From positions 162,373 to 226,372 of the forward strand of contig JBEPZY010000004.1 of NCBI GenBank assembly GCA_041640595.1: DNA of 64,000 nucleotides, written 5' to 3'. Below are positions 37,415-64,000 of the stretch, piece after piece. The notes under the pieces were generated by a model. It worked only from the letters and a program-made list of their open reading frames with translations, was not told the DNA's origin and searched no databases. Position 1 is the stretch's first letter. Each line of letters begins with the position of its first letter. This DNA is from Gemmatales bacterium (GTDB taxonomy: Bacteria > Planctomycetota > Planctomycetia > Gemmatales > HRBIN36). The position numbers were made by a program, and so were the translations under genes.

Positions 37415-37750
37415 ATGACCCCCATGCCTTACCTCCAGCGGAGCCCCCGTCAAAACCGGCGACGAACCAGACCGTGCATGAGCGCCGCTTGGCAAATTAA
37501 CCAGCAGCAATATCAGGCAGTAATCAACCGGTTTAACAGGGACGCAAACAATCCACCTAATTACAGTGTCTTCGACTATAATTGTACGAACTGGGCATTC
37601 GATGTGCTCAATCGGGAAACTCATATCCGCTGGAGGCCCCAACTTGTACAGGAGCGTGTAACAGGCAGGTGGTTGTTGGCACCAGCTCAAGTCGGTGTAG
37701 AATTGCGCAGGAATCCAGTACCACAAAACGGGATAGGGTTAGAACCCTAA
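37415..37750 (+). pseudogene. C-terminal fragment of a permuted papain-like (NC-motif) putative toxin
   Basis: YSVFDYNCTNWAFDVL resembles the Y...NCxxW/F motif of PPPDE/LRAT-like enzymes; no credible N-terminus. Confidence 0.45.
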
Positions 37751-37782
37751 GCAATGAAAAGTCCATGCGAGGGAGAGCAAAC

Positions 37783-39078
37783 ATGACCAGGTCTCACCGA
37801 GTGGTGAAGCTGGCGGTCTTCTCAATGTTCGCGGCTGTCCTGGGAGGGATAATTAGCATGTCGCTGGCGGCTAGAAAAATCTCCGTTCTTGGAGACCTCG
37901 AGGACTGTGCACACGTAAGATTGTCTTTGCAAGATGGCCAGGTTCGAGTGCACGCTATAGAACCCTCAGGCCGGTTACTCATGCTCGACTTGAAGACTAA
38001 GGAAATCAAAAAACTGAGGGTAAAAGATTTAGAACTTGACGGCACGCAGCACATCTCCGTCGGAGGCCTGTTTGCCCCTATGAGTCCAACTCATTACGGT
38101 GTTAGAGCTCCAGATTCAAGCTTAGTCAACCTTTTTGTCGTGAGGGGAGCCGGTGAGGATTGCCAAACCTGGCTAGTTGATTTAGATACTGGAGCCGCCG
38201 TACTTCGACTCGAGGGTGGCTGGTACTGCTTGCCTACCGGCGATGGGATCTACGTTGTCTGGTCAGGCGAGCGAATACCTGGAAAAACGAAGCAGGAGTA
38301 TATTATCTATCGCTATGCAAATGCTAGGTTAGAAAAATTCTCGTCCTGGCAGCCTGATTTACCCATACAGAGTATTCTTTTTGCTCGATCACACGGAAAC
38401 TCGATTCGTATAGTTTGCGAGCGTCTCGTAGGAGAGAATCAAGGTACCCAACACAAGGTCGGGCAATTAGGACAAGCTCGTGCTATTTATCTCATAGATT
38501 TAGAAACACAGACAGCCAGAGTCCTGAGGTCTAAAAAGGTATTGGAGCTAAAACGCACTCCAGGCCGTGACAAGTCCTGGCCTTCAGCAGCAGTCTTCCC
38601 CGCACCATCGCCTGATAGCGTCTATATATACGAGCCTCAGAATCGTTCTCTCTATCTTTTTGACTGGAAGACGCTCCAAATGATTCGTGAGTTAAAACTG
38701 CGGATTCAAAAGAACTCAGAGGATAATGAATGGGAGCTCATTCCCTTCTTTATTATCCATCCTAATAAACCTCTGGCATTGCTGGTGTTTCCTATGGGGT
38801 TCGTATATCTGTTAGACTTGTCAGACGGTAGCCTTCGCCTATTGGGCGATGAACATTTCAAGAAGTTAAATCAATTTGTCATGACGCGCAGCCAGGAAGA
38901 GCCACTGGTTGGGTTAGCGGCAGTGCATTTTATGATGAAAGATGGAGTTTTCATGCCTAACGAGAATCAGGTGGTTGTAGTCGCGGGTTCTGGACATGTT
39001 TATATTTACAACTTAGCGCAGTCCAGACTGGACGCAGTTTTTCGTCTGACAGCAGAAGACCTCTTCGAACGCAAATAA
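37783..39078 (+). CDS. Exported beta-rich (propeller-like) protein, putative immunity
   Basis: Signal/TM N-terminus; repeated YLxDLxxG blades; directly after the toxin-like fragment; ATG 37783 after GGAG. Confidence 0.65.
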   Translation: MTRSHRVVKLAVFSMFAAVLGGIISMSLAARKISVLGDLEDCAHVRLSLQDGQVRVHAIEPSGRLLMLDLKTKEIKKLRVKDLELDGTQHISVGGLFAPMSPTHYGVRAPDSSLVNLFVVRGAGEDCQTWLVDLDTGAAVLRLEGGWYCLPTGDGIYVVWSGERIPGKTKQEYIIYRYANARLEKFSSWQPDLPIQSILFARSHGNSIRIVCERLVGENQGTQHKVGQLGQARAIYLIDLETQTARVLRSKKVLELKRTPGRDKSWPSAAVFPAPSPDSVYIYEPQNRSLYLFDWKTLQMIRELKLRIQKNSEDNEWELIPFFIIHPNKPLALLVFPMGFVYLLDLSDGSLRLLGDEHFKKLNQFVMTRSQEEPLVGLAAVHFMMKDGVFMPNENQVVVVAGSGHVYIYNLAQSRLDAVFRLTAEDLFERK

Positions 39079-39127
39079 ATTAATAAACCACCGTCAATAT
39101 AATTTTGCCTGTCCTGCGCACGGGCAC

Positions 39128-39829
39128 GATCCCGACGGGGACACTATGACCGCCCCAATGCCTTCAACCCCAGCGTTCCCGCGGCGTAATCAATTTCGCC
39201 TCCGGCCAACAGGCCTGACCAACGGCACACTGACACTCAATCCCGACGGCAGCTTCACCTATACGCCGAACACGCACTACGTCGGCCCGGACAGTTTCAC
39301 CTACACTTGGTCGGATGGTATGGGAAGCAGCGATGTCGGCACGATAAGTATAGATGTGGGGACCTACGCCGAGGATGAGTTGTGGGCACTGATGATCGAA
39401 ACGGACGGGGAGACGCGAGTACCTTACTGCAATGCGGATGATGAGGTCGTTCATTGGACTAGACACGACATATTACATATCCAACTTAGTCGGCCTATTG
39501 ACCGGGATGTTATAGTTGAATTACGGCTCGGCGTTATGGGCGACAATGGTGAACCCGCCGTTCAGGAATCGTCACGTTTATTTCTTCAAGTAGGAGAAAC
39601 CAGGGGAAAGTATCTGACGATTCCGATCACCACGGATGGTTCAGGACATCTAATATTGGTTTGTGTCGATCAAGACACCGGGGCTAGCGTAGACCTGGGA
39701 GAGACATGTATTCCAGCCCGTATACTGGCTGCTACTGGGACCTGGGTGCCACTGCGACCAGTCGTTACACTTGTACCCAATGCGGTGAGGACCTACAAAA
39801 AGACGATTTTCTGCGAGACCTCGGTATAA
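39128..39829 (+). pseudogene. Orphan cassette: partial Ig-like (Big_9) repeat plus degraded unique domain
   Basis: TNGTLTLNPDGSFTYTPNTHYVGPDSFTYTWSDG nearly identical to the repeats at 52.5-53.3 kb; downstream frames broken. Confidence 0.7.
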
Positions 39830-41474: not shown

Positions 41475-42824
41475 TTATGGTTTCTGCGGACCAGTGGCGG
41501 GTACACTAGGGGGTTTGTGGGCCTTGCGTTCAGTTGTGACTTTCCAGACTGGCCGCAGATATTCTTTTCCGGTGTTTTCTTTACCCCAATGCTCCCAGGG
41601 TATGATAGGGTAAACGTCGCCGGTTCTAGCGTTAATCCACAGTTCTTGCAAGGTGGGCTGCACGAAATATAAACTGGCTTTGGCCATATCAACCTTATCG
41701 GGGTGGCGAAAGCGCGGAAGGGCTACACGTACGATCCAGTAGCAATCTCCTAAGGCATCCGTCAAGCCCATTATGTGAAAGCAAAATTCATCATAATGCA
41801 CCATGGCGTGAAAGTACAATCCATCATGTGCCTTCGGCTCTGGCTCAGGTAGCAGGTCAAATTCTCTGGAATACTTTATAAGGGCGTGCGCTAGCTCTGG
41901 TTTAGACTTCACAACCTCCTGCATCGCCCGTTCCAGAGCCTGGCGCTCATTGGTTACCTTAGCGTTTTTCGGAAAATTAAATAAAGTAAATGCCTCACCT
42001 GGATTACGGAGTAGCAGTGGCCAGGAACCAAGGTCCCGTTCCATCTGGTCCAGAAGACCAGGGAAAGGAATTCCTGATCCGGGCATTCTCTTGGTCTGTA
42101 TTGGCTTCCTTTTCAGTCTCTCATCAGGCAAAGCTGACTCGTCCTGCACGATTAGAAATTCGAGTATGCGTGTACTTCGGGCATTGAGAAAAACATAGCA
42201 GGGCTGCATCTCCGACACCTCTCGTTTCAAAACCCAGACAGGGTCCCCGGCTTCGCCGAAACCATCTACAGGTACTCCGAGAATTAGCAAACTCGTAACA
42301 ACGTAGGGGTGGATCGGTTCCATAGCTGCTGGCCAATATTCATCACCCTGCGTCATTAGAAACTCCAGCGCCTCTTTGGGACTGCGAATTTTGCACTGCT
42401 GGACTATACTTTCTCTCCACTCTTTGAACACGATATTCATCTCTTCACACAGGAGGTATGCGGCGTAACCATCGGTTCCCGATTGTAAATCCAGCAGCGG
42501 TAGTAAACATTTGACCCGGGCCATGGCTATCTGACCAAGCGTACCTCGCCGACTGGGAGGCTCCAGAAATCCCTTCCATATATCAAGAAGCTTTTCAACT
42601 TCTTCGCCCTTGGCTTCTGGAATCCTGGACACAGTTCCAGCAGCTTTATCTTGCTCCTTCGACGACCCAGATTCCAGGACTTTTTGCGGCTTGCCAGCTG
42701 CCTCGCCACTGGAGCCACCTTTGGTTCCAGCCTCCTGGTCGGACTCGACGCAAGCGCTCTGGATAGTTAGTAGCCAGACTATTCCCAGAGCATAGATCGC
42801 AATGGTTGCAAGGGTCTTCCTCAT
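41475..42824 (-). CDS. Putative lipoprotein, immunity candidate with a duplicated domain
   Basis: Signal peptide with IQSAC; two GD.(V/Y)W...(L/I)NAR(S/T) units. Confidence 0.7.
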   Translation of the reverse strand: MRKTLATIAIYALGIVWLLTIQSACVESDQEAGTKGGSSGEAAGKPQKVLESGSSKEQDKAAGTVSRIPEAKGEEVEKLLDIWKGFLEPPSRRGTLGQIAMARVKCLLPLLDLQSGTDGYAAYLLCEEMNIVFKEWRESIVQQCKIRSPKEALEFLMTQGDEYWPAAMEPIHPYVVTSLLILGVPVDGFGEAGDPVWVLKREVSEMQPCYVFLNARSTRILEFLIVQDESALPDERLKRKPIQTKRMPGSGIPFPGLLDQMERDLGSWPLLLRNPGEAFTLFNFPKNAKVTNERQALERAMQEVVKSKPELAHALIKYSREFDLLPEPEPKAHDGLYFHAMVHYDEFCFHIMGLTDALGDCYWIVRVALPRFRHPDKVDMAKASLYFVQPTLQELWINARTGDVYPIIPWEHWGKENTGKEYLRPVWKVTTERKAHKPPSVPATGPQKP

Positions 42825-43791: not shown

Positions 43792-44574
43792 TTATTCTCC
43801 TTTCCTAATAAGCTTCTCTAAACGCCAATCCTTCGAGTTCTTGCCAGAGGTAGAAAGTTCAATGACGTAGGGGCCGCACCCTGCAACAAGCGTCCATTTT
43901 TCGTCCTTGAAGTGCAGCGCGACGATTCTGATGTCCTTTGTGAGCAATTGCCTAGCGGCCTCACGACCTAGAGCTTCTGTCAATTTTTCCTTTAAAGGTA
44001 CCTGATGGTCAGGGATAGTAGTAAAGTTTTTCCATTCGGATAACCTATAGTGTACGCCCAGCTTGTCGTACGAGGCTGGTCGAGGTGGCAGGGGATCCAT
44101 GTGCGACTGATTAAGGTTAATGCTATAAAACGCTAAACAGGGTTTTTCTTCTCCTGGCAATGCGAAAACAAGCTCAAACAACCCTTCGTTAGACAGGCTA
44201 GCTTGAAACCCATAAGGGGCCTTCTTTGGTTCTGTGAAGTCTCTATCGCCAAACCTGGCTGTCCAATTAACTGACCGCACTCTGCTTTTGGAGTCCCGCA
44301 ACTGATCTAGTATTTCGACGTATAGCCTGATCCAGACATCTTTATAAGAGACGTTCGGGGGCGCCCCAAAGTCGTGCTCGACACGAATTTTCTCCCAGCC
44401 AACTTCGGCCACTTGATGCGCAGCTATGCGCACGCTCAAGACCTTGTGTGGGCCATCCTGATTGGCTTGCGTTGACACGGCATTATTCGAAGTGAGCAGC
44501 AGGACAGTTCCAAATAAGGACAAATATGCCTTTATTGGGTTCATGGAATTCACCCTCACGTTAGTGGAAATCAT
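43792..44574 (-). CDS. Exported hypothetical protein, putative immunity to the transglutaminase-like toxin
   Basis: Signal peptide; immediately downstream of the toxin C-terminus. Confidence 0.65.
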   Translation of the reverse strand: MISTNVRVNSMNPIKAYLSLFGTVLLLTSNNAVSTQANQDGPHKVLSVRIAAHQVAEVGWEKIRVEHDFGAPPNVSYKDVWIRLYVEILDQLRDSKSRVRSVNWTARFGDRDFTEPKKAPYGFQASLSNEGLFELVFALPGEEKPCLAFYSINLNQSHMDPLPPRPASYDKLGVHYRLSEWKNFTTIPDHQVPLKEKLTEALGREAARQLLTKDIRIVALHFKDEKWTLVAGCGPYVIELSTSGKNSKDWRLEKLIRKGE

Positions 44575-44610
44575 TTATCAGTTACTGCAGACTATCTAAG
44601 CAATCTACCA

Positions 44611-46171
44611 TTAGCCTACCTGCACGAAGACGATCTCTAAAATGGTCGGGTCATTTTTCTTAGCCCGCAATCCCGCTGGGAAAACGTATACGAAACCATC
44701 CAGAGCAGCGTTCTCCCACTCATTTTTCCGTGCTGTATGGTCCTCCGCCATAAGAAGGATCATAATAGGCATCTGCAACCCGCACGACGAAATGATTTGC
44801 AAAAGCGGAAGGTGGATCGGGATTGCCTTGTCCCGGTACCCCCGCTTTTGGCTTAACTTCGGAGACCGTCGGGTCATCCAAATCTATTATATATGTGTAG
44901 GGACTAGTCGCTGGAGAACCGCCTGCGCCGTTGAATTCCCAGTTCTTGACCAGCATACCTGTTCGCCACGGTAGGGCATATAGTCCGGTGACTGGGTCTA
45001 TGGGTTGGTCAGCACTAAATACCATGAATTTTCTAGCCCCCTGAACGCTTATGGCCCCGTAAGTATCTATCAGCAACTCGGCCCAGGAGCCGCACTGGCC
45101 GTTTGCGTGGGCTAAAAGTTGCTGTGTGTTGACCGCAGTGGCCCTGCCGCCAGCCCAGTACCTCAATTGAGTGTCATCCACACGACGGACTTCCCGATCA
45201 GTGAAATCACTCCAAATTGCTGAGATAACATCTGATTCGTTTGTTTTGCCGTCAGCGTTCTTCGAGCCCAGATGCACCAGGGTATGGTATAAGTTTACCC
45301 CTGGTTTGAGGGCAGGGTCGGCAAAAGTAAGGTACAAAGGATTTGGCGTCGACCCCGCCTTCGTCCAGGTTGAGTTGGCGCGCTGGCTGTCGGAGGTGGC
45401 TTGCCAGTCCAGCCTGAAGAGATTTGCACCAACGTAAGCTTGCACCACATTCGGAAATGCCACCGGCGACTCCGTTACGTCAAGCACGAGTTCAGTCGGG
45501 TTCGTCGGGTCGACGCGCACAGCCTTCGGCCCTACGTGAATCTGGAATCCCGTCGCAGGGTCCGCCGGCCCCGTCGCCATCACATAAATCGGGCCGCCAC
45601 CCCACGCAGTATCTAAGACGAACCGGGCACTCACTTTCAACGTTGTACCCCGGGTGTAAGCGTATGGCCAGCTATGCTCATCCGCATCCTCCGCATCCCC
45701 GTCTAAGTTTTTGTCCAACCAGTGTTCCGAACTATAGGCCACGTCGGGAGCTATTACTCCAGTCGGGTCCAGCTCCGGGTCCCGGTACACGGTATGCCCG
45801 CCGCTGAACGTTACCGACCGGATACCAAGGATTTTAGCCGTGTGAACAACGACCGTTTGCGTCGCCTCGGCAACCCCATCACTAACGGTGTACGTGAACG
45901 AGTCGTCCCCAGTGTGTGGAGCATCTGGCCGCTCGACTGCATAATAAACAAAATCACCGTTGGGATTCATCACCAGCTGAGCACCGGATGGTAGTCGCAT
46001 CAACTGCCGCGGTGGCTGATCGTTAATCTTGACCACGCGTAAGCTATCGCCATCGGCGTCAGTATCGTTCGCCAGGACGTTTCCCCGAACGGCACTCCCC
46101 GCCAGGACGTAATACTCGTCATTTACAGCCTCCGGAGCAGTGTTATGAACAGCAATCCAAGCCACAGCCAT
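44611..46171 (-). pseudogene. Ig-like repeat + transglutaminase-like (Cys-His-Asp) putative toxin; 5'-interrupted, probable frameshift near 44725
   Basis: GNVLANDTDADGD..DSFTYTVSDG; GQCGSWA, NHFVV, YYDPSYG; EWENAALDGF tail lies in another frame. Confidence 0.7.
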
Positions 46172-46317
46172 TTGTCGGAACTAGAGAATTCATTTGCCAA
46201 CCAGAGAGGAGCAGTGTTATGAACAGTGTCCAAGCCATAGCCACTGGGATTGTTAACAGTGAGTTTATTATACTGGTAGTGGAGCAGTGTTATGAACGGT
46301 GATCCAAGCCATAGCCA
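46134..46317. repeat. CRISPR-like mini-array made of duplicated coding sequence: 3 x 36-37-bp repeats, 2 x 37-bp spacers
   Basis: ggagcagtgttatgaac...tccaagcca(c/t)agcca at 46134, 46208 and 46281; encodes AMAWITVHNTAP on the minus strand. Confidence 0.9.
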
Positions 46318-46785
46318 GGCCTAAAGCTATACCATCCGTAAACCCAAATACAAAAGCATCGGTGCCAGTATAACCAGCCGCCGGTGTATATCTAAACCTG
46401 CCATCATCATTCAATACCACCGTGCCATTCGTCGGAGCGGAGATTAGTTGCGCCGAGAAAACGCTGGGGCTTGAAAGCATTGGCACGGTGATAGCGTCGC
46501 CGTCCGGATCGTAGCCGCAGAGCTGGCCGACCAACTCGCGGTCGTGCAATACACTGAAACTCTGCATGGCGCCCAGCTGGGCAGACCTCCACCTATAGTA
46601 GCCGGTCGGTTTGTGATCATCCAATACGCTGAAGCTGGCATCGTAGGCATACGGCGCGTTGTTATAAACATCTATCACGACAGTGGCCGTGTTGCCGGTG
46701 GTCAGCCCATCCGACCAGGTGTAGGTGAAACTATCCGTACCGACGTAGTGCGTGTTCGGTGTATACGTGAAGCTGCCGTCGGGAA
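46268..46785 (-). pseudogene. Ig-like (Big_9) 5' arm of the transglutaminase cassette, carrying insertions
   Basis: PDGSFTYTPNTHYVGTDSFTYTWSDG..IDVYNNAPYAYDASFSVL[75-bp insert]HDRELVGQL..DAIT[33-bp insert]AQL. Confidence 0.75.
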
Positions 46786-46832
46786 GGGCACTTGGCTGTG
46801 AGCAAACAGCAGCTGCCCATCTTACGGGCAGC

Positions 46833-47828: not shown

Positions 47829-47834
47829 TGCCTC

Positions 47835-49707: not shown

Positions 49708-49756
49708 GTGTAAGCCCAGCATTAGGTAGTCGCAACAGCTGTCGAGCTCTCACACC

Positions 49757-53555: not shown

Positions 53556-53975
53556 TTATCGAGGGACCGCTTTGTAAAGGAAATATTTTTCTGCCTTGGT
53601 ACGCACGAAATAAAGATCCATTTCCTTGGTTCGAACAAGATGACAATCTGATGGCAGCTTCGTATATGCCTCGAAAGTTAGATCGTGCTTAGCCAGCAAC
53701 TCCCGTAGTTTTGCGCCGTAGCTCAGGGAAACCAGCGCGTTCTCCCGAGACCATTTCTCCTCGTCCTTGACAATTTCCATCAATTTAGAATAGCTCCTGT
53801 ATAATTCTGCAGGAAGGATATGCTCTGGTCCAACCTTCTTGACCTCGATTTGCTCCGCATGAGCCTTATGATTGGCGATGTAACAGACGGGCAAAAGTAA
53901 GGCACTACCAAGGAAGACCAGAAAGACGCCTGGCAGATTGTATGCAATGGGCAAGGGGTGAGGCTCGAATCGCAT
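53556..53975 (-). CDS. Small exported hypothetical protein (immunity candidate)
   Basis: Hydrophobic N-terminus, AHA cleavage-like site, GAGGAG RBS. Confidence 0.6.
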   Translation of the reverse strand: MRFEPHPLPIAYNLPGVFLVFLGSALLLPVCYIANHKAHAEQIEVKKVGPEHILPAELYRSYSKLMEIVKDEEKWSRENALVSLSYGAKLRELLAKHDLTFEAYTKLPSDCHLVRTKEMDLYFVRTKAEKYFLYKAVPR

Positions 53976-54021: not shown

Positions 54022-55779
54022 TTATTGATTTTCCAAGTACGAATGGCCATACAGCCAATACTTCCACCCACTCGGGGTTGCCAAGAAGACAAGACGAAAC
54101 TCGTGTACCCGACTTTTGAGAGTCACTAGACAAACGTCCGGATTATAGTGCGTAATGGCTTCCATAGTCGCAGAGCTAAGGTTGCTAATAGCGGAGCGAA
54201 AGGTTCGCACCTCAGGGTACGAATCTACTCCGAAAATACTCAGGCGGGACAAGGTCACCTTGTCGTCAGCAATCACTGCATCGGCAAACTCCGCTAGAGT
54301 CGTGACCAAATCTACCATGCCCTGCCAGCGACCCTGCGATGTGCGTTGCCAGTGATCCTTCGGCAAACCTTGGGGTAGACGCGGGCCAGCCGGGCCCACT
54401 GGACGGTTGTACACTAAGTGGCACGGAGTGCTAAGTAGCGATACGGACGTAACTTGCGGTTGGCTGTTATTTTGGCAGTAACGCTCTATATCGCTTGATA
54501 ACGCCGTTTGGTGCTGCGCTTTTTGCTGCGCCTGGATTTTTGCGCTCGGAATTGTCGCAATTGCATTGTCTTGCTCGGCAGCTGCGGGTATTGCCGTCGG
54601 TTGGCGTTGCAGGGTAGCGGTTCCGGTTGGCAGTTGCTCGGCCGTACCAGGCTGCCCGCTGACGCCTGCCGCTTTCCGGAAGTGTTCGTCCGTTACGGAA
54701 CGGTAAAACTGGTCGGCAATCGCTTGGCTATGGCCCAGCCAGGCCGCGCAAGTATGCGAGGGGAAAATATCGGCCAGCTCGGTCGCCCGTGTAGCTCGCA
54801 TGTTCTGAAACGGTTTCGGCCAGGGTTGAACGCCTGCCAGTAGGCAGTAGCGGTTCAGTTGGGTTCGCAGGTTGGCATCCGGCTTGTAGCGAGTAATCAC
54901 TTGGTCGGGTGCGCCTTCCGGCAGTTGGTGCCATAGTTCCTCTAAGTATGGCCGTACCTCGGCAAAAATGGGAATAATCCGGACGCCTTGGTCGGGATGG
55001 TGTGCGGTTTTTGGCGAACGGATAATCATCCGATGATTGGCCCAGTCTATATCCGACCAGCGTAGTGTGGCGATTTCCGACGGAATGCGTAATCCTGCCC
55101 AGCGTGCCAGCGCCACAATCAGCCGAAACTGGGGGCAGGGAATTACGTCCAAAACTTTCCTAACTTCGTCCGCAGGAATCAATTTCCGACGGCCAGGATC
55201 GCCTTGGACGGTCAGTCCCTTGATATGCTCAAAAGGATTGCTGGCAATGTAACCGCGTCGGCAGGCTGCGCGGAAAAACTCCTTGATTAGCCGCGTCCAT
55301 TTATTCGCCGTTGCTTTGGCTCGGCCTCGGAGTAATTCAGCCCGAATACGGTCGGCATCCGCTGGGCTAATTCGGTCTAGCGGTGTATTCGGGTCAACCG
55401 AACGGAGTAACCAACGGGCAGCTTGCCGCAAAATGATATGTGTGGACGGCTTGACCTCGGCAGCCCGCAATTGTAAGTGCTCGGCAATAAACTCGCCCAG
55501 AGTCGGTGTCCGTTGACGCTGGCGCGGTTCCGCTAAGTCCCAGGCTTCCAATTTCCTGTAGATGCGTTCCGGCAGGCTGTCCAGCCATTTTGCAGTTGCT
55601 AATGGCAAAGGCGTTGCCGTAGTTTTGGCCGCAACCAGTTCGCGCACGTGTAGGGCGATATGCTCGGCAGTCTTACGGTCTCTGACGCCAGGCAACCGCA
55701 ACGCTCGCCGGATGCCGTGATGATCGAAAAAGTCAATCCGGTAGATGCCGCTTTTTGGGTCTTTCAATATACTGGCCAT
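54022..55779 (-). CDS. Tyrosine recombinase/integrase; C-terminal about 120 aa come from host DNA beyond the att junction
   Basis: GLRIPSEI (R), SPKT (K), QNMRATR, WLGHS, QFY; GGAGG RBS. Confidence 0.9.
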   Translation of the reverse strand: MASILKDPKSGIYRIDFFDHHGIRRALRLPGVRDRKTAEHIALHVRELVAAKTTATPLPLATAKWLDSLPERIYRKLEAWDLAEPRQRQRTPTLGEFIAEHLQLRAAEVKPSTHIILRQAARWLLRSVDPNTPLDRISPADADRIRAELLRGRAKATANKWTRLIKEFFRAACRRGYIASNPFEHIKGLTVQGDPGRRKLIPADEVRKVLDVIPCPQFRLIVALARWAGLRIPSEIATLRWSDIDWANHRMIIRSPKTAHHPDQGVRIIPIFAEVRPYLEELWHQLPEGAPDQVITRYKPDANLRTQLNRYCLLAGVQPWPKPFQNMRATRATELADIFPSHTCAAWLGHSQAIADQFYRSVTDEHFRKAAGVSGQPGTAEQLPTGTATLQRQPTAIPAAAEQDNAIATIPSAKIQAQQKAQHQTALSSDIERYCQNNSQPQVTSVSLLSTPCHLVYNRPVGPAGPRLPQGLPKDHWQRTSQGRWQGMVDLVTTLAEFADAVIADDKVTLSRLSIFGVDSYPEVRTFRSAISNLSSATMEAITHYNPDVCLVTLKSRVHEFRLVFLATPSGWKYWLYGHSYLENQ

Positions 55780-56037
55780 AGCAATCCTCCATCTGAGCCA
55801 GGCTTGCCCAGCGTCGGTGCTGGTAGGTCTGGCTCGCCTTTTGTATGCCGTTCAGCTGCCGTTCAATATGCGCGGTTCGGTTAGCTTCGTCCAGTTGGTC
55901 GCCGGATATAGCAACGTCTGGCCGATTGCTGGTCGCTTGCGGTGCGTTGCCGCATGGCTTCCCGTTGCCGATGGTCGGTCTGGGAATAGGTAGCGGTGCG
56001 GCTTGCTTTCTGGCCAGCTCTGCGCCAGGGAAGGCGA

Positions 56038-56748
56038 TTAGCGTTTTAGCTTCAAAATCCGCTCTGCTTCGTCGCGTGAATAGCCTCGCGCCACGAATGC
56101 ATCCACGAGTTTGGTTGCGTGTTCTGATACTGCGCGCTCAATCGGCACTGACCCGGTAGGTTGCCCGGTCTGTTTCAGTTGAATTTGTTTTTGCATAACT
56201 GATGCGCATGCGAAACGCCCAGTCACTGGCGGAAAAAATGATTGCGAATACGTGAACCGCGAATGCGCAAAACCAATCAGGATTCGGATAGGATCATAAT
56301 TCCTTGTCGGCGGCGAATAATGCCGCTCGAATTTCGTGTAATTGTGCTTGTTGTCGCCTCGCGTTACTATAACCGGCCCGTGTGCAATTGCTGCAGCAAA
56401 CTCACAAACTGCCTCGAACGGAAGCAATAAAACGCATGGCGCCCAGTCGCCGTGTTCCTGCATGGCAAAAATTGTACACGCAGCTGCCAACTGTGTTTTT
56501 TCGCGTAGCGCGGCGGCGATATCGTCGCGCAGCTGGCACCGGCAAAATGCATTGAACGGCCAGCCAGGCAAAAAGGCAAAGTTTGTTTGCGACCAACACA
56601 AAACTACGTTGCGATTGTGATAATGATACGTGTATCGAACGTACACAACGTCGCCGACTACATCGAATTGTTCTGCAACCTTTTCAAGTGGGGGCATCGC
56701 GTGCACGATGATTTGCTCGCCATTCCGCAAAGTTTTGTATGCTGTCAT
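56038..56748 (-). CDS. Hypothetical element protein
   Basis: 236-aa ORF with GAGG RBS, downstream of the ori-like repeats. Confidence 0.55.
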   Translation of the reverse strand: MTAYKTLRNGEQIIVHAMPPLEKVAEQFDVVGDVVYVRYTYHYHNRNVVLCWSQTNFAFLPGWPFNAFCRCQLRDDIAAALREKTQLAAACTIFAMQEHGDWAPCVLLLPFEAVCEFAAAIAHGPVIVTRGDNKHNYTKFERHYSPPTRNYDPIRILIGFAHSRFTYSQSFFPPVTGRFACASVMQKQIQLKQTGQPTGSVPIERAVSEHATKLVDAFVARGYSRDEAERILKLKR

Positions 56749-56770
56749 TATTGCCTCGTTGTGTTAGTGC

Positions 56771-56865
56771 CCCATCTCATCTCATCTTCTTTCATCTAGA
56801 TGAGACGCTTAGAGCTTAGATGAGATGTTAACCATCTCATCTCATCTAGATGAGATGAGATGAGA
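56771..56865. repeat. CATCT/AGATG pentamer iterons in palindromes centred on TCTAGA (ori-like)
   Basis: catctcatctcatctagatgagatgagatg perfect palindrome plus a second partial copy. Confidence 0.75.
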
Positions 56866-56889
56866 GGCGGTATGGGGGAGAGAAGTGTA

Positions 56890-57099
56890 TCAATAATCGC
56901 TGTCGCGTTTTGTTTGCATTCGACGTAGCAGCCAGCCCTCAATCGTTTGCGCGTGAAAAACAACCCGTCGCCCTAGTCGCAGGTAGGGAATCTCTCCACG
57001 TCTCACAAGATTTCGCAAGTGCCCAACGCTGATTTTTAGACGCTGCGCTGTTTCGCGCATGTTCCATACAAGTGCAGCAATCTGCTCAGTGTGTTGCAT
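56890..57099 (-). CDS. HTH_17 excisionase-like DNA-binding protein
   Basis: ETAQRLKISVGHLRNLVRRGEIPYLRLGRRVVF..IEGWL; AAGGAG RBS. Confidence 0.85.
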   Translation of the reverse strand: MQHTEQIAALVWNMRETAQRLKISVGHLRNLVRRGEIPYLRLGRRVVFHAQTIEGWLLRRMQTKRDSDY

Positions 57100-57396
57100 C
57101 GTGTTGCTCCTTTTGCTTGTGTGTTCACTTAAACGTTGCGAGTTCAGATAATTTCCATGCTCAACCGACGTAACCTACGCCAGCAAAATCACTTGTGACA
57201 AATCGCGGCGTTCAGATGCGTTCACATACTGTGAAGAAGTTGTGAAGAAGCGTTCAGATGCGCGCATAGAGTTGGCCATACCTAGCTTGATAGTCGCATG
57301 GACAATCAACCGAAAACAAGGCCAACTCTAAGTTCCCGCTTAGGCAAAACCGGCCTAGCTAGTGCCCTACCTTGATTAGCAACGCCCAGTCAGCTG

Positions 57397-58308
57397 CTAA
57401 CTTTCGTCCCGTCTCGGTAGTTCGCAACTTTGCGCGCGTGCACGGTAACGCTCGGCTTGTTGCTGCTTAGTTGCTTCGCGCATGCCTTTGATGGCCGATG
57501 ACTGGGATACAGCGCTCTTAGCGCAAACCAGAAGCCCCGCGAGTGCCTCTATAGCGCCCGTCTGGTTCAACTGATGGGGGCGGATAAACTCAATCTCTAT
57601 AAGTTGCCTGATTGTCAGGTTGACGCATCTTGCGTGCGGGTTGATTTGTTTGGTTTCCTCATGCCGTAACAAAATATCAATCGCGCGCTGGAAGGTTTCT
57701 GTGGCATCCGGCTCGCGTTGCCAAATGGCCTCTATAAACTCGGAATCCTCAACCGCCTTCAGGTATTTCAGTAGCTTTTTGCCAGCCTCTTGCCTGTTGT
57801 CTGCATCTGAATCCCCAGCGCCGGGGTCTGCAACGGGGCGAGGTTCGCAGGACAAAATAGCGCTCCAGATTTCGGCACGGATTACCTTGTGCTTTCTAGT
57901 GTCGAGTTCAAGTTCAACGAGATATTTTGACGACACTTGCCAGGGCAGTATGCCTAATTCGCGCTCGCAAAGATATTGCTCACTTGCGAGTGCCTCTTTT
58001 ACCTTGTCCGCTAGTTGCTTGAACGTATAACCTCGGCTCTTGTGCCACTTTCTTAGCCGACTGCCAGAGAAGGCTGGTAAGTTCTTGTATCTATCGCAGT
58101 ACACTATCAGCGCGCTGGCCAGGTTTTGCAATGCTTCCCAGCTAAACCTATGCGAATCATTTGTGGGCTGTTTCCCGCGAAAAAGATTTTCTATCGCCTC
58201 AAGCGCGTTTTGCTTTGTCGCCCGGTCGCATAGGTTCGCATCGCTATACATCGCCACGCACAGGTACGTCCATTCGTATGAGAAGCGTCGTTTTTCCAGC
58301 CATCGCAA
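57397..58308 (-). CDS. Hypothetical protein with possible degenerate XRE-like HTH
   Basis: FSGSRLRKWHKSRGYTFKQLADKV..SKYLVELE. Confidence 0.55.
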   Translation of the reverse strand: MRWLEKRRFSYEWTYLCVAMYSDANLCDRATKQNALEAIENLFRGKQPTNDSHRFSWEALQNLASALIVYCDRYKNLPAFSGSRLRKWHKSRGYTFKQLADKVKEALASEQYLCERELGILPWQVSSKYLVELELDTRKHKVIRAEIWSAILSCEPRPVADPGAGDSDADNRQEAGKKLLKYLKAVEDSEFIEAIWQREPDATETFQRAIDILLRHEETKQINPHARCVNLTIRQLIEIEFIRPHQLNQTGAIEALAGLLVCAKSAVSQSSAIKGMREATKQQQAERYRARAQSCELPRRDES

Positions 58309-59132
58309 GTTTTCTCGAATCTGACGTATCAGCGTACACGCAGCAGCGTATGTTTCCTTCGCCCGTTGCAGTATCCGCTCTCGGTCTGATGGTGGCGGAA
58401 GGCCAGTGCCATTTAGCCAGCTTTTTAGATCGGCCTCGGTGCAACCGATGCGGTTTGCGAAACTCTCTGTTTGAGGTACGTCGCCTCGAATAATTCCCGC
58501 AACTTTTTGACGAAATCGGCGTCCGATAACGCAGAGATTCCGAATTTCTGATGTTCAGGTTGCCAGGGGCTATCTTGGTCGCTATATTTAGCCATGCTTA
58601 GACTCCAGGCACGGCCACGATGCGAAATCTAGGTATTGGCGTCGTGGCCGCTGCTTTTTAGTTATGCGATAGGCACTAGGGGTCAAGTCTGCGAAACTTG
58701 AGTCGCTACCTAGAGCGCAGGTTTTCCGCTTCCAGTTGGCCAGGAAGCCTACCTCAGCCATCGGCGTTGTCCGCAATGGCTTCCTGCCGCTTGGCGGGGC
58801 ATCGGCCATTCGGTGCGCTGGCAGCCCGTAACCGGATAGGGGGGAAAAATTTTGCCGCTAGGCAGCCGTGTAACGTTCGCCCAGCCGCGCGTGCATTTTT
58901 GCGAAATTGGCCAATCAACACGGTGCACGTCGGCAACCGGTCTTGCTGCGGAGCGTGCGGCTTGCGGTTCGGCCAGGTCTCGGTGCATCGGCAACGTTGC
59001 ACGCTGGGCAACCGACCTCGGTGCGGATGCGGTGCGGTTCGCATCGGTTGAACGTCGGCAACCGGTCTTGCTGGGGAGCGTTCGCGTGCGGCTTGCGGTT
59101 CGCATCGGCCAGGTCTCGGTGCGGCTGCGGTG

Positions 59133-59400
59133 CTACGGCTTGTTTTTCCCGAAACTTTCCAGCAACCGTATCAGTAACTCGCGTTCGGTCTCGGATAGGG
59201 ATGCGATAATCCGCAGTGCCTCGGCCAATCGGTTGCCAGGTTCGGACGTTTGCGATTCGCCAGGATTGCCGCTTGCGGTATCCGGACGGTCTGGCTTGGC
59301 TTTTTCCCCGAAACTGCGGTTAAGTGCTGCGCTTTTTGCTGCGCCGGAATCGCCAACCTCGCATTTTCCTAGGAAATTTGCAGGATGTTCGAATCCTGCC
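59133..59400 (-). other. Detached C-terminal tail of the integrase, restored on the excised circle
   Basis: PAGFEHPANFLGKCEVGDSGAAKSAAL...LLESFGKNKP is in frame with integrase ...PVGP when the ends are joined at GCCGG. Confidence 0.6.
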
Positions 59401-59854
59401 GGCCTACCCAGTCGCACACACCAAGAGGATGCCGGCGATTTACATAGATTCTTTCGACCCGGTCCCATTCGCAACGGTTGCCAAGGCGACGCAGTTTTAG
59501 CACCACCTGGATTTCCCGGCCTTTATCCTCACTTACGTCTCTCCAGAAGCGAAGCTCGATCGCTTCCCGCCAGCTCTTATTGACCTGAATCGCTACCGAC
59601 ATCAGGGTAACAATCTTTTCTTCGGCCAAAGCGTCTTTCAACTCTTCAAGCTGTTCGACGTTCTTCTCTTTACGTCCGCCTCCCACTACTAATTCATGCA
59701 ACTGGCGACAATAGTCGAGGGCGGCTACTAAGTCCCAGTGAATTCCGGTCCGCTGACCGTCTCTGGGATCGTTATCCGCCTTTGGAGCTACTGAGCTTAC
59801 CAGGAGAGCTATTATCACTATTGCTAATGCTTTTACCGTCCGCATAGAGCACAC
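59369..59854 (-). pseudogene. Exported immunity-like gene interrupted by the integrative element
   Basis: Signal peptide MRTVKALAIVIIALLVSSVA; last residues QDSNILQIS derive from the element end. Confidence 0.65.
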
Positions 59855-59877
59855 CTCCCATCTAAAGGAAATACTGG

Positions 59878-62091
59878 TTATTGTCCCAGCCTTGTAAGTA
59901 AATTGCTCTTTAAAATCTGTTGCTGCTGATCTGGGAATATCCGCCGCGGGTAATCCACTCGCCTTGGGTCAAAATCTTTGTCAAAAATGTCTTCTCGACC
60001 GGTTTGCATCGCATTGACGGCGTTTATCCCGACCTTTGGATCGACATGGTCGTCTACGCCAACGGGACTGTTCAATAGGACGTGGACAAGTTCATGGGCC
60101 AGGACTGCTGTATACTTGGGATATTCAATCAGTCTTCCTTCTTCGAAAGCACGACGTTGAGGATCTGTGCTTATGAGTCCAGCCAAGATTATCGAGTTTG
60201 CCAACCTTGGGTTCGACATGCCTTCTTGGGTAAAGGCCTGACCTACCACCGGAAAGCCAAAGACACCTAAGAGAGTAGACCTGAACACATTGACTGTATA
60301 TACATGGACCACTTTGGCGTCTTGCTCGCGGTAGCTTATCAATAGATTATGGAGCTCTCCCGATCCATTTGGTACCATTTTGTTCTGGCTGTCAAATTCA
60401 AAACTCAAATCATCCAACCCGTCCGCGTCATTCAGATTCACCTGCGGGGGCGGTGGCTTGACGTCAGTGCGCTCCCCGATAACGTCTAGTCTAATTCCCA
60501 AAGGAGCCAGAATATATCGTGCTTCTCGTAAATTGGCTTCTGTCCACTGATAGTATATGCCATCAATCGGAGCGGGATGCTGCCAGTTTATGAAGACCGA
60601 CTTCACGCGCAGTGAATATTGGGCGGGAACATCGGCGTCAACCCACCATCTACCCTTGTATATCGCCCGAACCTTCCCCTCCAGCTCCCCGAGAAAAGTT
60701 GGATCTCCTTTCTGGTTGTCTGCGACAGGAATATTCAACAAGTCGTCATCTGGGTGGGCCACTAACAATAGCTCGTCGGACCAGAACTCCCCTTCTGCGT
60801 CTGGTTTTTCTCGTAGAACGATCTCGTTCCCATTATCCAGCAAACGGCCCTCCTTATCGAAAGTCACAATGAGCGCTGTGATCTGGTCGTTTCCTGGACC
60901 CGGTGTTATATTGGCGGCCGGGTCGTTGATGCGGAGGATAAATTTTTTCGGGTCGCGGCGAACATAGTCATTTCTTAGTACGACCTTATCATTAACACGC
61001 TCAAATGCACTCGGCCCTTCCAAACCAGAAAGCTTCAAAGTGTTCGTGCGCGAGTAAAAACTCCACCCGTTCTCGCTCCTCTCATAAGCCGCAAAATACA
61101 TATTTATCGCGCCGCCACCTCCACCGCCACCACCAGCACCGACCTGCAACAGCATGCGTACATGCCAGCTCGCACTATAAGGATATGCCTCGTCCTCATT
61201 GTAAGTGTCGTTGTACGGGGGATAAGGCGGCCTAATCGGAATCCGATCGGTAACAAAATATTCAAAGCTGCCGTCTATACCCTCATAGTCCGCTGGCGGA
61301 CGGAACACCCACGCATTCCACGAGCTGTCAAACTCCCAATGTTCCGAAAGCTGGCCCGTCTTTACTAACTCAAGAGCATCTCCATCCGGATCCCAATCGT
61401 TTTCTAACAGCGTGGCCAGAGTGATAGCCGGCCCCTGGTAATCAGCCGGAATACTATCCCCCAGAAATACTGCGAAAGTTTGCCCCGGCTCTACTATAAA
61501 CCACTCCCCCTGCGCCATCGGCGGATTATTATATACACGAATCGTAACCGTGGCCACATTGCTCCTGTTCACCCCGTCGGTCCATTCGTATGTGAACGTA
61601 TCCGGGCCAACATAACCTGGATTAGGTGCATACACGAAGACCCCGTGCTCTGGGTCCACAAAATCCACTGTTCCATGAGCTGGCCCACTGACCAGTGCAG
61701 CGGTAAGCGAATCCCCATCGGCGTCGTAACCCTCTAACATGCTAGACACGGTTCGGTCGTGCAATACACTGAGGTGAGCATCAAAAGCGACCGGCGATTC
61801 GCCGTTGTGGATTACCAGTGTTACCGTGAGCACCGCGCTTTCGCTTATTCCGTCAGACCAGACATAACTAAAACTGTCAGTCCCGAGGTAGTTCTCTTCT
61901 GCGGTATAAGTAAACGTGCCATCCTGGTGCAGCTCAAGTGTTCCGTGAACCGGCCCCGTATCGAGAATCGCGGCGATGCTGTCACCGTCGGGGGCGTTAC
62001 CGTAGAGCTGGCCACTAAGCACCTGTCCAGCTTGCACATAGAACGTCGCCCCATAACCATAAGGTGCGTTGTTATACACATCTATCGTCAC
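59878..62091 (-). CDS. Ig-like repeats + C-terminal zinc metallopeptidase putative toxin (5'-truncated cassette)
   Basis: Big_9-like repeats, poly-Gly linker, VLAHELVHVLL..DDH..NAM; frame stays open upstream through another partial repeat to about 62275 without a start codon. Confidence 0.8.
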   Translation of the reverse strand: MTIDVYNNAPYGYGATFYVQAGQVLSGQLYGNAPDGDSIAAILDTGPVHGTLELHQDGTFTYTAEENYLGTDSFSYVWSDGISESAVLTVTLVIHNGESPVAFDAHLSVLHDRTVSSMLEGYDADGDSLTAALVSGPAHGTVDFVDPEHGVFVYAPNPGYVGPDTFTYEWTDGVNRSNVATVTIRVYNNPPMAQGEWFIVEPGQTFAVFLGDSIPADYQGPAITLATLLENDWDPDGDALELVKTGQLSEHWEFDSSWNAWVFRPPADYEGIDGSFEYFVTDRIPIRPPYPPYNDTYNEDEAYPYSASWHVRMLLQVGAGGGGGGGGAINMYFAAYERSENGWSFYSRTNTLKLSGLEGPSAFERVNDKVVLRNDYVRRDPKKFILRINDPAANITPGPGNDQITALIVTFDKEGRLLDNGNEIVLREKPDAEGEFWSDELLLVAHPDDDLLNIPVADNQKGDPTFLGELEGKVRAIYKGRWWVDADVPAQYSLRVKSVFINWQHPAPIDGIYYQWTEANLREARYILAPLGIRLDVIGERTDVKPPPPQVNLNDADGLDDLSFEFDSQNKMVPNGSGELHNLLISYREQDAKVVHVYTVNVFRSTLLGVFGFPVVGQAFTQEGMSNPRLANSIILAGLISTDPQRRAFEEGRLIEYPKYTAVLAHELVHVLLNSPVGVDDHVDPKVGINAVNAMQTGREDIFDKDFDPRRVDYPRRIFPDQQQQILKSNLLTRLGQ

Positions 62092-62506
62092 CGTGCCGAT
62101 ATTACTGCCCTCTAAACCATCCGACCAGGTATAGCTGAAACTATCGGGGCCAACATAGTGCGTGTTCGGGGTATAGGTGAAGGTGCCGTCGGGATGGAAT
62201 GTTAGTGTGCCGTTAGTTAGACCGGAGGCAAATTGCGCCGGGAAACGTTGGGTCTTGGCAGTAATGGGACAATCATGTGATCATAGTCAGGATAGGTGGG
62301 CTGGGACTGGCGGGCAATGCTGTACTCATGAGAGTGCGTGTTAGAACTTGCTAATGAACCGGGGAGCACTGCCATGCATCAACGGCATTTGTTTTGCCTA
62401 TTGTTGTTATAGCTAGAATTGCTATCATTTTATCGTTATACAAATCAGCCGTGTATGTGGCGGCAACTCGTATACCCTGGCAGTCCGATGGGAATCATTG
62501 ACCTGG

Positions 62507-63814
62507 CTAAGATTTACGTGGTGCCGGTGCTGGCTTGGTCGGTTCAGGCGTCGGAGAAGTAGCTGGCGACTCTGGAATCTCTACGGGTAATCGCAACTTG
62601 TCCAGTGGGATAAAAGCATCTTCAGGGACCGCTGCGATATCCCAGACATAACAATTTCCAGCGATGCGGGCAATGACAAATCGGCCGCTGTCAGCAAACT
62701 GGAGGTTATAGAGCGACCAATCTCCCAGCGAAGCCAAACGTGCGGCTACTTTGCGTTTAAGATCGCACATAACAACTTCCCCTTTATATGCAAACACGGC
62801 TCTGTCGGTTTCTCCATCGAAGGCATAGCGATTCAACAATCCATATCCCCACCCGGGTCTGGTCAGAACTTCTGCTATTGGTGGACCCGGTTCGAGCTTC
62901 TCCAGGTCAAGCTTTCTAAAGCATAGAACCAAGCCTTTCATATCTTCGTCCCAATTATTAATTGATGCGAATTGGTAATGGCTTCTGCTCTGGTCAAAAA
63001 CTATTGCATATTTAGAATCCCTGCAAAGGCCAACGTACTGCGTGGATAACAAGTCTTTGGACCATCGCTGCATTTCGCCCGTTTTCTTGTTGTAAGTCAC
63101 AAGAAAAGTGTGCCTGAATGATCCGGAGGTCTGATGTAGTGCTAATACCTCTTGGCCTCGCACAGCCAGACTGCAGACACTATGATAATCTGGAATAAAA
63201 TCATCGGTAACCTTAGTAGATTTGAGAACTGTTTTCCAATCAATTGTGTTGTCCCATAACACTTTGCCGGACTCCAGGTCCAATGCAAAAACCCGTCCGC
63301 CCCTACTGCCACAGTAAGCTATTTTTTCCCCCGCCGGCACCTGCATTGTAATAACATCACCGGGCAAAAAACACATCGCTTCCCGGAGATTAGGGGCACC
63401 ATACTGGGCGATCACATTGCCATCGAGATCAACTACAGCAGCGCAGCCGTTATCGTTTGCCAGAAATACTAACTTCGATTCTTTATCAACATGGATGAGT
63501 ATGTTGTTGCCCAGGGGAGCCAATGGTAAACCTGCCTTGAAACTCAGGCGAAAGGTTTCTTCTTTTGATGGGAGCCGCACAACACGAAGTGAAGCGTGAC
63601 CAGGCATGAATAAAGGGGGTGTGGTTAGAACGGCGATCTCTGCCCCGTTGGGCAGTACACCTATTCCTTGCACACGCTCGGATGAGCCGTTTATGGCCTG
63701 GCCATGGTAGATGCGCAGGCCCGGGTAATTGACGCCGCCTGCGTCGCTGGCTTTGCTGCATCCGCTCAGAACGACACCGAGGCTCAGGAGTATCCCGACG
63801 ACCAGCCTGGGCAT
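62507..63814 (-). CDS. Beta-propeller lipoprotein (PQQ/WD40-like), immunity candidate
   Basis: Lipobox LSGC; GSRGGRVFALDLESGKVLW, FADSGRFV, YVWD; AGGAG RBS. Confidence 0.8.
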   Translation of the reverse strand: MPRLVVGILLSLGVVLSGCSKASDAGGVNYPGLRIYHGQAINGSSERVQGIGVLPNGAEIAVLTTPPLFMPGHASLRVVRLPSKEETFRLSFKAGLPLAPLGNNILIHVDKESKLVFLANDNGCAAVVDLDGNVIAQYGAPNLREAMCFLPGDVITMQVPAGEKIAYCGSRGGRVFALDLESGKVLWDNTIDWKTVLKSTKVTDDFIPDYHSVCSLAVRGQEVLALHQTSGSFRHTFLVTYNKKTGEMQRWSKDLLSTQYVGLCRDSKYAIVFDQSRSHYQFASINNWDEDMKGLVLCFRKLDLEKLEPGPPIAEVLTRPGWGYGLLNRYAFDGETDRAVFAYKGEVVMCDLKRKVAARLASLGDWSLYNLQFADSGRFVIARIAGNCYVWDIAAVPEDAFIPLDKLRLPVEIPESPATSPTPEPTKPAPAPRKS

Positions 63815-63825
63815 GATACATCTCC

Positions 63826-64000
63826 TATGTTTGGATTACCCGGAAAATCTGCAGCGGCGCAACGGCATGGCTTTCGATTGCAGTGCCATCTCCTTCCAAA
63901 GCCGAGATGGTTCGCCGAGGTGGCCCGTTGTGATCGTATTCGTAGATTCTCGAATGGGCTACTTGCAAATCGTTGGCAGGGCCGTGTTCGAGAGTTACGA
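63826..64000 (-). CDS. Probable 3' end of an upstream gene (frame ambiguous)
   Basis: Two minus frames are open to the window edge and stop just before the lipoprotein RBS. Confidence 0.3.

Follow-up and report, generated by a model that had tools for sequence, protein, structure and literature searches.

A tandem array of Big_9-repeat cassettes with enzyme tips and exported partners in a Gemmatales bacterium, a candidate polymorphic toxin system

We analyzed a 64,000-nucleotide stretch of DNA (the window) from a Gemmatales bacterium, taken from contig JBEPZY010000004.1 of assembly GCA_041640595.1 (G000:C4:162373-226372 in our numbering; genome of 4.45 Mb in 42 contigs, 95.5% complete). From 37.6 to 64 kb, the window is a low-GC island harboring four cassettes, A to D, in which Big_9/tandem-95 repeats are joined to unrelated C-terminal tips. 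GC content was 0.49-0.56 from about 37.6 kb to the window end and 0.58-0.63 in the flanks, and all of the cassettes lie on the minus strand except A. We consider that this tandem array, with its repeat stalks, enzyme tips and exported partner proteins, probably serves as a polymorphic toxin/immunity system, with recombination that would move silent cassettes lacking a leader onto a leader-bearing gene. A first-pass annotation of the same DNA had proposed a system of this type. Its reading drew support from the architecture, the orphan modules of tip and partner, a recombination breakpoint and the conserved pairing of tips with partners, but did not stand with respect to a carrier gene beyond 64 kb or to near-identical recombination arms. 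Two orphan hydrolase-tip fragments with their partner genes, the breaks in cassette B and a mobile element had escaped its notice.

The four cassettes do have an Ig-like repeat in common, as had been noted, although the unit is 267 nt (89 aa) and not about 264 bp; it matches Pfam Big_9/Cadherin_5 and NCBIfam tandem-95 in each of them. Three tandem copies were found at 52516-53316 (85% and 73% identity to the reference copy), more copies at 46.5-46.8 and 62.0-62.3 kb (62-88% identity), and an inverted copy at 39212-39369 (79-92% identity over 78-158 nt). When the stretches of repeat that would serve as recombination arms were compared, DNA identity between arms was 62-92% and the longest exact matches, with arms elsewhere in the genome included, were 12-79 nt. 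The arms are therefore not near-identical, yet they are clearly related and contain patches long enough for recombination. The tips, by contrast, were confirmed by sequence comparison to be unrelated to one another, and searches of tips and partners against Pfam, NCBIfam, PHROGs and PDB sequences returned only Big_9 and an integrase.

Structure prediction bore out the transglutaminase-like assignment of tip B. The tip is predicted to comprise a beta-sandwich followed by a transglutaminase-like core with a Cys-His-Asp triad; we found 24 relatives, and the model (26 sequences) had a pLDDT of 92.5. The top Foldseek matches were TG3, TG2 and FXIII (E from 8e-7), with protein-glutaminase also among the fold matches, and VIA-align gave Z scores of 9.0 for TG3, 7.4 for TglA (rmsd 2.8 over 127 residues), 6.8 for LapG and 5.6 for PeiW. 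Residues C246, H341 and D352 are nearly invariant in the 26 sequences, and the window copy carries the motifs QCGSWA...NHF...YDPSYG. Animal TG2, TG3 and FXIII, S. pyogenes TglA, LapG (BTLCP) and the pseudomurein endoisopeptidase PeiW share the order of N-terminal beta-sandwich and Cys-His-Asp core, and in PeiW the same fold is able to cut cell-wall peptide links. Tip B differs from these enzymes in its low identity to them (9-15%), in having no Pfam transglutaminase match, and in being a C-terminal module with an exported partner.

Tip C is likewise predicted to be what the first-pass annotation had called it, an alpha/beta hydrolase, preceded in the model by a PAD-like beta-sandwich. In that model (36 sequences, pLDDT 84.4) the N-terminal sandwich resembles PAD N-terminal and Ig domains (Foldseek E 1e-7), and residues 197-394 adopt an alpha/beta-hydrolase fold (VIA Z up to 14.7, rmsd 2.6 over 154 residues) matching lipases, esterases, dienelactone hydrolases and the phospholipase TleB (9j3f, Z 13.3). 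G269, G273, D307 and H371 are invariant in the 36 sequences. The full-length window copy, C_full, has the nucleophile motif GYCVG, with Cys (residue ~790) in place of Ser and with Asp and His present, while two orphan fragments of the same tip and nearly all relatives have Ser (GYSxG). A search of 1.84 billion representatives yielded 267 relatives at E <= 1e-3, and the tip was always C-terminal among the 150 matches listed (proteins of 159-2024 aa). We scanned the architectures of the 54 longest of the 74 proteins with at least 550 aa: 11 had Big_9, 7 TSP3, 6 Calx-beta, 2 FG-GAP and 1 RHS repeats, and 22 had no family. Many proteins with this tip open with an LExR leader or a signal peptide.

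Tip D is a weak lead to an HExxH metalloprotease. The motif, AHEL(V/T)HVLLN, is kept in its only homologue, which is 67% identical, open over 757 aa and also starts in mid-repeat, and a weak ESM feature lead (0.86) pointed to reprolysin-like clusters. Neither Pfam nor PDB gave a match for the tip. A run of eight glycines (window 61080-61110, residues ~322-331 of D) links the stalk to the tip and is shorter in the homologue. Tip A had been described as degraded; this cannot be shown because no relatives of its 150-aa tail were found.

Each of the three enzyme tips is followed by a gene for a probably exported protein, as first reported. We used the maximum of an N-terminal hydrophobicity score (KD12) to call exported character, and the next gene scored 2.05-3.16 in each case; every one of the partner proteins has a strongly hydrophobic N-terminal segment (2.03-3.16). 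Downstream of cassette C the pattern is repeated, in the order C_full, imm1, orph1, imm2, orph2, imm3. Both orphans match the last 140 residues of C; they open ~15 residues ahead of the GxSxG elbow and retain Ser, Asp and His. Identity is 35-47% among the fragments and 29-36% among the partners. Two successive units, elsewhere 36-47% identical, share a 300-nt tract at 94% identity that runs across the 3' end of a partner gene and the 5' end of an orphan.

Comparison of cassette B with a paralogue on another contig, C3, pointed to exchange of such units. Matches to the repeats of C are confined to the window cassettes, to C3:611-617.5 kb and to an arm fragment lying 12.2 kb right of the window. 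The C3 copy consists of a leader, ~2.7 repeats, a TAA at a 33-nt junction and the transglutaminase-like tip also found in B. Behind it come an exported partner, a cassette that starts in mid-repeat and ends in a hydrolase tip, and the partner of that tip. Going down from 46560 to ~45080, and leaving aside a scar described below, B and its C3 paralogue share 95-98% DNA identity. Past ~45080 no alignment is possible over the rest of the tip or anywhere in the partner gene; dS was 0.067 before the break, and pS was 0.76 and 0.82 (saturated) after it. The break falls right after NGQCGSWA, the motif with the catalytic Cys. Homologues from metagenomes share the 5' part, with breaks at residue ~285 or ~110. 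These comparisons indicate that the tip end and the partner gene have been exchanged as one unit at a sharp breakpoint.

We then asked how widely tips are accompanied by partners. A tip was scored as paired if a same-strand ORF started -30 to +250 nt of it, and for the transglutaminase-like loci room was taken to mean at least 700 nt of downstream sequence. The transglutaminase-like tip occurred at 59 genome loci, in Planctomycetota, Verrucomicrobiota, Lentisphaerota, Kiritimatiellia, Bacteroidota, Acidobacteriota and others. Out of the 54 with room, 47 had a downstream ORF, and 40 of these 47 had a KD12 of at least 2.0, compared with 216 of 1056 (20.5%) long ORFs of this genome. The partners fell into groups of 10, 5, 5, 3 and 2, the window/C3 pair and 28 singletons. 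For the hydrolase tip we used 79 metagenome loci, leaving out the window's own copy (L113) and counting the C3 copy (L159); several are duplicates of one another, and the independent number is lower. A downstream ORF was present in 50 of the 57 loci with room, with a KD12 of at least 2.0 in 34. An HMM of the window partner family matched 33 of the 50, one being the organism's own C3 copy, and 11 of 1309 other ORFs, all of them on the tip strand in nine loci where the pairing rule failed. In both tip families, a downstream gene for an exported partner is conserved in dozens of genomes and metagenomes that are unrelated to one another.

The chief alternative is that the tips are ordinary secreted or surface enzymes, for substrate degradation or envelope remodelling, with an exported helper such as a Lif-like foldase, an inhibitor or an anchor, in a decaying gene family shuffled by gene conversion. 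Lipase foldase genes lie directly downstream of the lipase, and LipA/Lif operons share with this locus a lipase-like hydrolase that precedes a membrane-anchored or exported protein of ~300 aa. The tips also sit on typical planctomycete surface architectures (LExR leader, FG-GAP, Calx-beta, TSP3) or behind plain signal peptides. On the other side, three intact partners are kept beside two truncated enzyme fragments, where a foldase would be useless without its enzyme; the tip end and partner were apparently swapped together, and the partner co-varies with the C-terminal part of the enzyme; the partners of the transglutaminase-like tip are highly diverse; and the cassettes are 5'-truncated at a shared position. 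By sequence, C_imm1 is not Lipase_chap: against Pfam at E <= 10 it matched only PAC2 (E 0.26, chance level), and the ESM Atlas gave only weak HEAT-like leads (0.85-0.87). We consider secreted enzymes with helpers unlikely, while giving them serious weight. Because intact partners persist beside truncated tips and because tip end and partner seem to move as a unit, we favor immunity over a folding role. For the hydrolase, a Lif-like helper is the less likely alternative.

Cassettes A, B and D do begin abruptly in mid-repeat, with stop codons just upstream and non-hydrophobic N-termini (maximum KD12 0.13-0.92) that carry no leader. The same had been said of cassette C, but C is a complete ORF with an ATG, and its 62-aa N-terminus is intermediate and ambiguous (KD12 1.77). 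The 5' limit, 'YG.DPDGD', is shared within ~5 nt by A, D and the mid-repeat cassette on contig C3 (C3_orph). About 34 nt inside this boundary, the first repeat of six arms carries a 33-nt insert, TGCCAATGCTTTCAAGCCCCRGCGTTTTCTSGG, coding for VPMLSSPSVFS; it is found in C3_N/tip, C3_orph, C4r and B_N, is degenerate in A and D, and is lacking in C's internal repeats. After the insert, four arms (C3_N/tip, C3_orph, the C4:238.6-kb fragment and A) read TAA, and B and D read CAA. A frameshifting 13-nt duplication was seen in three arms, and the arm of A combines a degenerate insert, the TAA and a 13-nt duplication.

Such an insert with its stop codon could be a dedicated junction for site-specific exchange of tip-and-partner cassettes. 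Its restriction to the first repeat of the six arms, its absence from the rest of the genome and the coincident 5' limits of A, D and C3_orph are in keeping with this. No recombinase is linked to the cassettes, however, as the sole integrase lies in an element that other populations lack; we found no conserved motif flanking the cassettes outside the arms and no 3' site; and the 33-mer is missing from the cassettes of the same genus. Common descent of the arms would explain the shared boundary equally well. Site-specific exchange at this insert is, in our judgment, highly improbable.

A full-length gene carrying the stalk had been expected beyond 64 kb. Beyond the window we found no large gene of this repeat type; the rest of the contig contains only the frameshifted arm fragment 12.2 kb to the right. 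This fragment is B-like, lacks a tip (G000:C4:238300-239900) and has short tandem repeats on both sides. The only leader-bearing copy lies on contig C3; its frame spans ~860 codons, is not giant, and is interrupted by one TAA. Two other kinds of candidate carrier were rejected: two large Big_9 proteins on contigs C1 and C2 do not share the repeats, and the large family-level proteins of 1292-1525 aa are ordinary LEDR-leader surface proteins. The leader of the C3 copy (C3_N), LRVEMLEDRNAP / …VRLRVEMLEDRNAPN…, fits the motif LxLExLExRxxP / RRLxxExLExRxLLA, which PMC8567305 describes, citing Studholme 2004, as a planctomycete cell-surface export signal. The motif was found in ~18 ORFs of this genome. 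A search with the C3_N leader region returned an unrelated surface protein in genome G403, a frameshifted copy in the same-genus genome G402, and nothing else.

Mosaicism extends to the C3 leader gene, which combines C-like and B-like arm sequence (exact matches of 52 and 59 nt); a metagenome contig from run X1 agrees with the assembly at this locus. In G402, tip, partner, mid-repeat cassette and exported ORF follow one another in arrays. Between its leader-bearing copy and the cassette belonging to it lies a repetitive, multiply frameshifted stretch of ~1 kb (G402:C22, locus L046, ~8000-9400), which may be another set of insert scars.

Most of the copies in this genome are silent or broken. 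In B the break is a 146-nt scar with a unit of ~74 nt, and the C3 paralogue lacks both of its inserts; on metagenome contigs aligned to the C3 copy, both inserts appear as 37-nt additions. The C-terminus of B is also cut short relative to its homologue P0003. A further observation concerns an in-frame 75-nt extra segment, 'SFSVLDDHKPTGYYRWRSAQLGAMQ', which precedes 'SFSVLHDREL' in the Ig repeat at window 46560-46635 and recurs at G000:C4:238.7 kb and in protein P0009. The copies flanking it are ~67% alike, and the segment may be an earlier scar resembling the B inserts that has spread between arms.

These defects raise the question of whether the island is a graveyard of horizontally acquired remnants with no present function, broken by rearrangements, off-target CRISPR spacer insertions and a mobile element. 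The absence of starts and leaders in A, B and D, the scar and truncated end of B, the TAA of the C3 copy, the 13-nt duplications, the frameshifted G402 counterpart and the integrase element within the array all fit that picture. Against it, the frames remain long (913, 737 and 583 aa) and the partner genes are all intact. The dN/dS ratio was 0.44 for B versus C3 and 0.25-0.30 for the partner and orphan pairs, where dS is saturated. The sole homologue of D is open throughout, and the stretch is present in contigs of many hot-spring runs from 18 studies. A graveyard without function seems improbable to us.

Several further results count against a polymorphic toxin system and should be set beside those in its favor. 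The tips and partners had no Pfam, NCBIfam or PDB-sequence match, catalogued toxin and immunity families included. The T6SS sheath gene TssC (PF05943) was not found in the 95.5%-complete genome, with a positive E. coli control, and the planctomycete hydrolase homologues G127 and G156 have no obvious partner. These three points also favor secreted enzymes, as does the finding that the hydrolase partner is a single family of ~260-330 aa, membrane-anchored or exported and directly downstream. A leader-bearing gene in intact form was not found: the TAA common to four arms interrupts the C3 copy, and the leader-bearing copy in G402 is frameshifted. The match of PF07595 to C3_N scored 12.5 bits, below the cut-off of 25.5; its scores in the genome as a whole were also below the cut-off, and control genomes scored alike. 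The N-terminus of C_full had no match in 30 relatives and no Planc_extracel (PF07595) match. In addition, B is broken twice, arm identity is only modest, and the one RHS-linked homologue of the hydrolase tip, P0110, is not a canonical Rhs C-terminal toxin.

If the array is nevertheless a polymorphic toxin system, export would place the leader-bearing protein on the cell surface, with the Ig-like stalk presenting the enzyme there. The enzyme would attack the envelope of a neighbor, with the transglutaminase-like and HExxH tips acting on peptide cross-links or proteins and the hydrolase tip on lipids or esters, and the partner would neutralize it in the producer's periplasm. Cassettes would be exchanged through homologous recombination or gene conversion, acting both between the repeat arms and inside the conserved portion of a tip. 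A narrower model seems quite unlikely as a whole. It holds that many silent, leaderless tip-and-immunity cassettes are moved, in the manner of pilE/pilS, onto one LExR-leader gene at the 33-nt junction, with TAA/CAA as an off/on switch, and deliver two unannotated but widespread effector-immunity families (diverse exported partners for the transglutaminase-like tip, one family for the PAD-sandwich hydrolase) without a known contact-dependent secretion machine.

T6SS envelope effectors with periplasmic immunity include the Tle lipases with Tli and the papain-like Tae amidases with Tai. The window cassettes resemble these in their GxSxG/Asp/His hydrolase tip, their Cys-His-Asp papain/transglutaminase-like tip, their exported partners and their extra partner arrays. 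They differ in the fusion to an Ig-like stalk, in having no T6SS sheath gene found in the genome, and in showing no sequence relation in the libraries searched. Planctomycete leader-type surface proteins share the leader with C3_N and many tip homologues, and Big_9, Calx-beta and FG-GAP are typical of them, but each of them is one large gene, with no downstream partner gene, orphan modules or tip swapping. Silent pilS cassettes of Neisseria and MafB cassettes (for MafB, PMC7738311) are likewise leaderless, promoterless and 5'-truncated and share an arm with one expression locus; here, in contrast, no recombination into an expression locus was seen and the expression copy is itself interrupted.

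Polymorphic toxin systems have been defined by Zhang et al. 2012 (PMC3482391), and we compared the array with the features given there. The window has shared Big_9 arms, four unrelated tips and a sharp paralogue breakpoint, together with the orphan tip-and-partner modules orph1/imm2 and orph2/imm3 (46.8-49.7 kb), which A, B, D and C3_orph resemble; an N-terminal export element was seen in the C3 copy only. Rhs and CDI loci with orphan modules of C-terminal tip and immunity gene are described in Zhang et al. 2012 (PMC3482391) and Poole et al. 2011 (PMC3150448). Like Rhs and CDI (CdiA-CT/CdiI), the array has variable C-terminal tips on conserved repeats, a downstream partner, tandem 5'-truncated orphan modules, and a tip end and partner that diverge after a breakpoint. 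Unlike them, it has a Big_9/tandem-95 stalk, an LExR leader and a breakpoint inside the catalytic domain at the Cys motif, and no RHS/YD, FHA, TPS, DPxGL or VENN motif, CdiB or T6SS was found. Searches of the window proteins gave no RHS_repeat/YD-shell match at E <= 0.01 and no Pfam match to TPS, FHA or CdiB/ShlB; a ShlB search of the genome was empty, although its control was likewise silent everywhere. The word 'cadherin' does not occur in the first 300,000 of the 357,715 characters of Zhang et al. 2012 (PMC3482391), and the open-access literature searched, as far as its available text goes, contained no account of planctomycete systems with an Ig-repeat (Big_9) stalk.

Besides the cassettes, the window contains a mobile element and several neighboring genes (Table 1).

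Table 1. Positions of cassettes, partner genes and other features in the window (nt; protein features as predicted)
Feature	Position	Strand	Description
Arm of A	39104..39370	+	One Big_9 repeat; opens mid-repeat at '..GHDPDGD'
Cassette A ORF	39146..39829	+	227 aa; partial repeat and 150-aa tail, no leader
Exported protein	41475..42824	-	449 aa; in no known family, downstream of B partner gene
Partner of tip B	43792..44574	-	260 aa; hydrophobic N-terminus; 29.5% identity to C3-paralogue partner
Cassette B tip ORF	44720..46171	-	483 aa; one Big_9 repeat, predicted beta-sandwich and transglutaminase-like core
Break in B	46172..46316	-	Repeat(36)-insert(38)-repeat-insert(38)-repeat; insertion relative to C3 paralogue
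Cassette B repeat ORF	46268..46678	-	
Arm of B	46268..46800	-	~2 repeats; mid-repeat start; 33-nt insert then CAA
imm3	46833..47828	-	331 aa; third hydrolase-family partner, exported
orph2	47835..48260	-	141 aa; orphan hydrolase-tip fragment 2, holds Ser, Asp, His
imm2	48310..49263	-	317 aa; second hydrolase-family partner, exported
orph1	49270..49722	-	150 aa; orphan hydrolase-tip fragment 1
C partner (C_imm1)	49757..50743	-	328 aa; exported/membrane-anchored, directly after C
Cassette C (C_full)	50763..53504	-	913 aa; sole intact gene; unique 62-aa N-terminus, 5 Big_9 repeats, predicted PAD-like beta-sandwich and alpha/beta hydrolase
Small exported protein	53556..53975	-	139 aa; no family, between D partner gene and cassette C
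Mobile element	54393..59400	-	Integrase-bearing, in array, not part of system
Partner of tip D	59369..59854	-	161 aa; exported; last codons at element insertion point
Cassette D ORF	59878..62091	-	737 aa; 3 Big_9 repeats, poly-Gly linker, AHELVH tip, no leader
Arm of D	61500..62335	-	Repeat homology past ORF start to ~62335; same repeat position as A; stops precede
Lipoprotein	62507..63814	-	Lipobox LSGC; weak BamB/PQQ beta-propeller match; island right edge

The genes at the two island edges (w37582 and w62507) are unrelated to each other, and no tRNA genes were found in the window. The runs holding the stretch are hot-spring and microbial-mat metagenomes. One of them, X6, is an RNA library whose contigs hold half of the stretch's words; contigs are no sign of transcription.

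The 5.0-kb integrase block is an independent insertion that is absent from other populations, because contigs from runs X4 and X7 join its flanks directly. The X4 contig joins 54392 to 59401 (shorter side 255 nt) and the X7 contig joins 54396 to 59413; without the element, the D partner, the 139-aa gene and C are adjacent. The integrase, a tyrosine recombinase (ORF 54022-55779), runs ~123 codons past the element end into the flank. An integron-like reading of the array was rejected, on the grounds that the integrase, besides being co-directional, is part of an element not present elsewhere. A loose end beside the element in X2 and X6 resembles a tRNA T-arm (GGTTCGAA.CC), and the element may therefore occupy tRNA genes in other places. 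We also noted a 35-nt direct repeat (86%) at 54503 and 59316, and a palindromic block of CATCT/AGATG repeats at 56770-56870 (15-nt perfect arms; 42-nt arms at 71%) just upstream of the element's 236-aa ORF. The element end at window 58920-59125 has short direct repeats with 125-136-nt spacing. Contig depth over the same positions was far above that of the neighbors in three runs (up to 722 versus ~20), which suggests that the piece is present in several copies or also occurs in other organisms.

The metagenome contigs also gave three leads to recombination within the array: a 534-nt (two-unit) contraction in X6, and the joints 48238->51325 and 62085->46683, both in X7. All three joints are short-sided single contigs or come from a lower-identity strain. 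Arm joints in the near-identical run X2 were not counted as new recombination, being explained by the C3 and C4r paralogues.

Polymorphic toxins are known mainly on Rhs, CdiA, LXG and MafB scaffolds in proteobacteria, firmicutes and Bacteroidota. To our knowledge, planctomycetes lack the usual delivery machines, and little is known of how they compete. A polymorphic toxin system in this Gemmatales bacterium would add a new stalk (Big_9/tandem-95) and a phylum-specific leader to the repertoire. It would make two unannotated enzyme-partner pairs, found in dozens of genomes and metagenomes (PVC, Bacteroidota, Acidobacteriota and others), candidate effector-immunity pairs, and it would provide a natural case of recombination breakpoints inside a catalytic domain. 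Should the pairs instead prove to consist of an enzyme and its helper, both conserved modules would still be new families worth naming.

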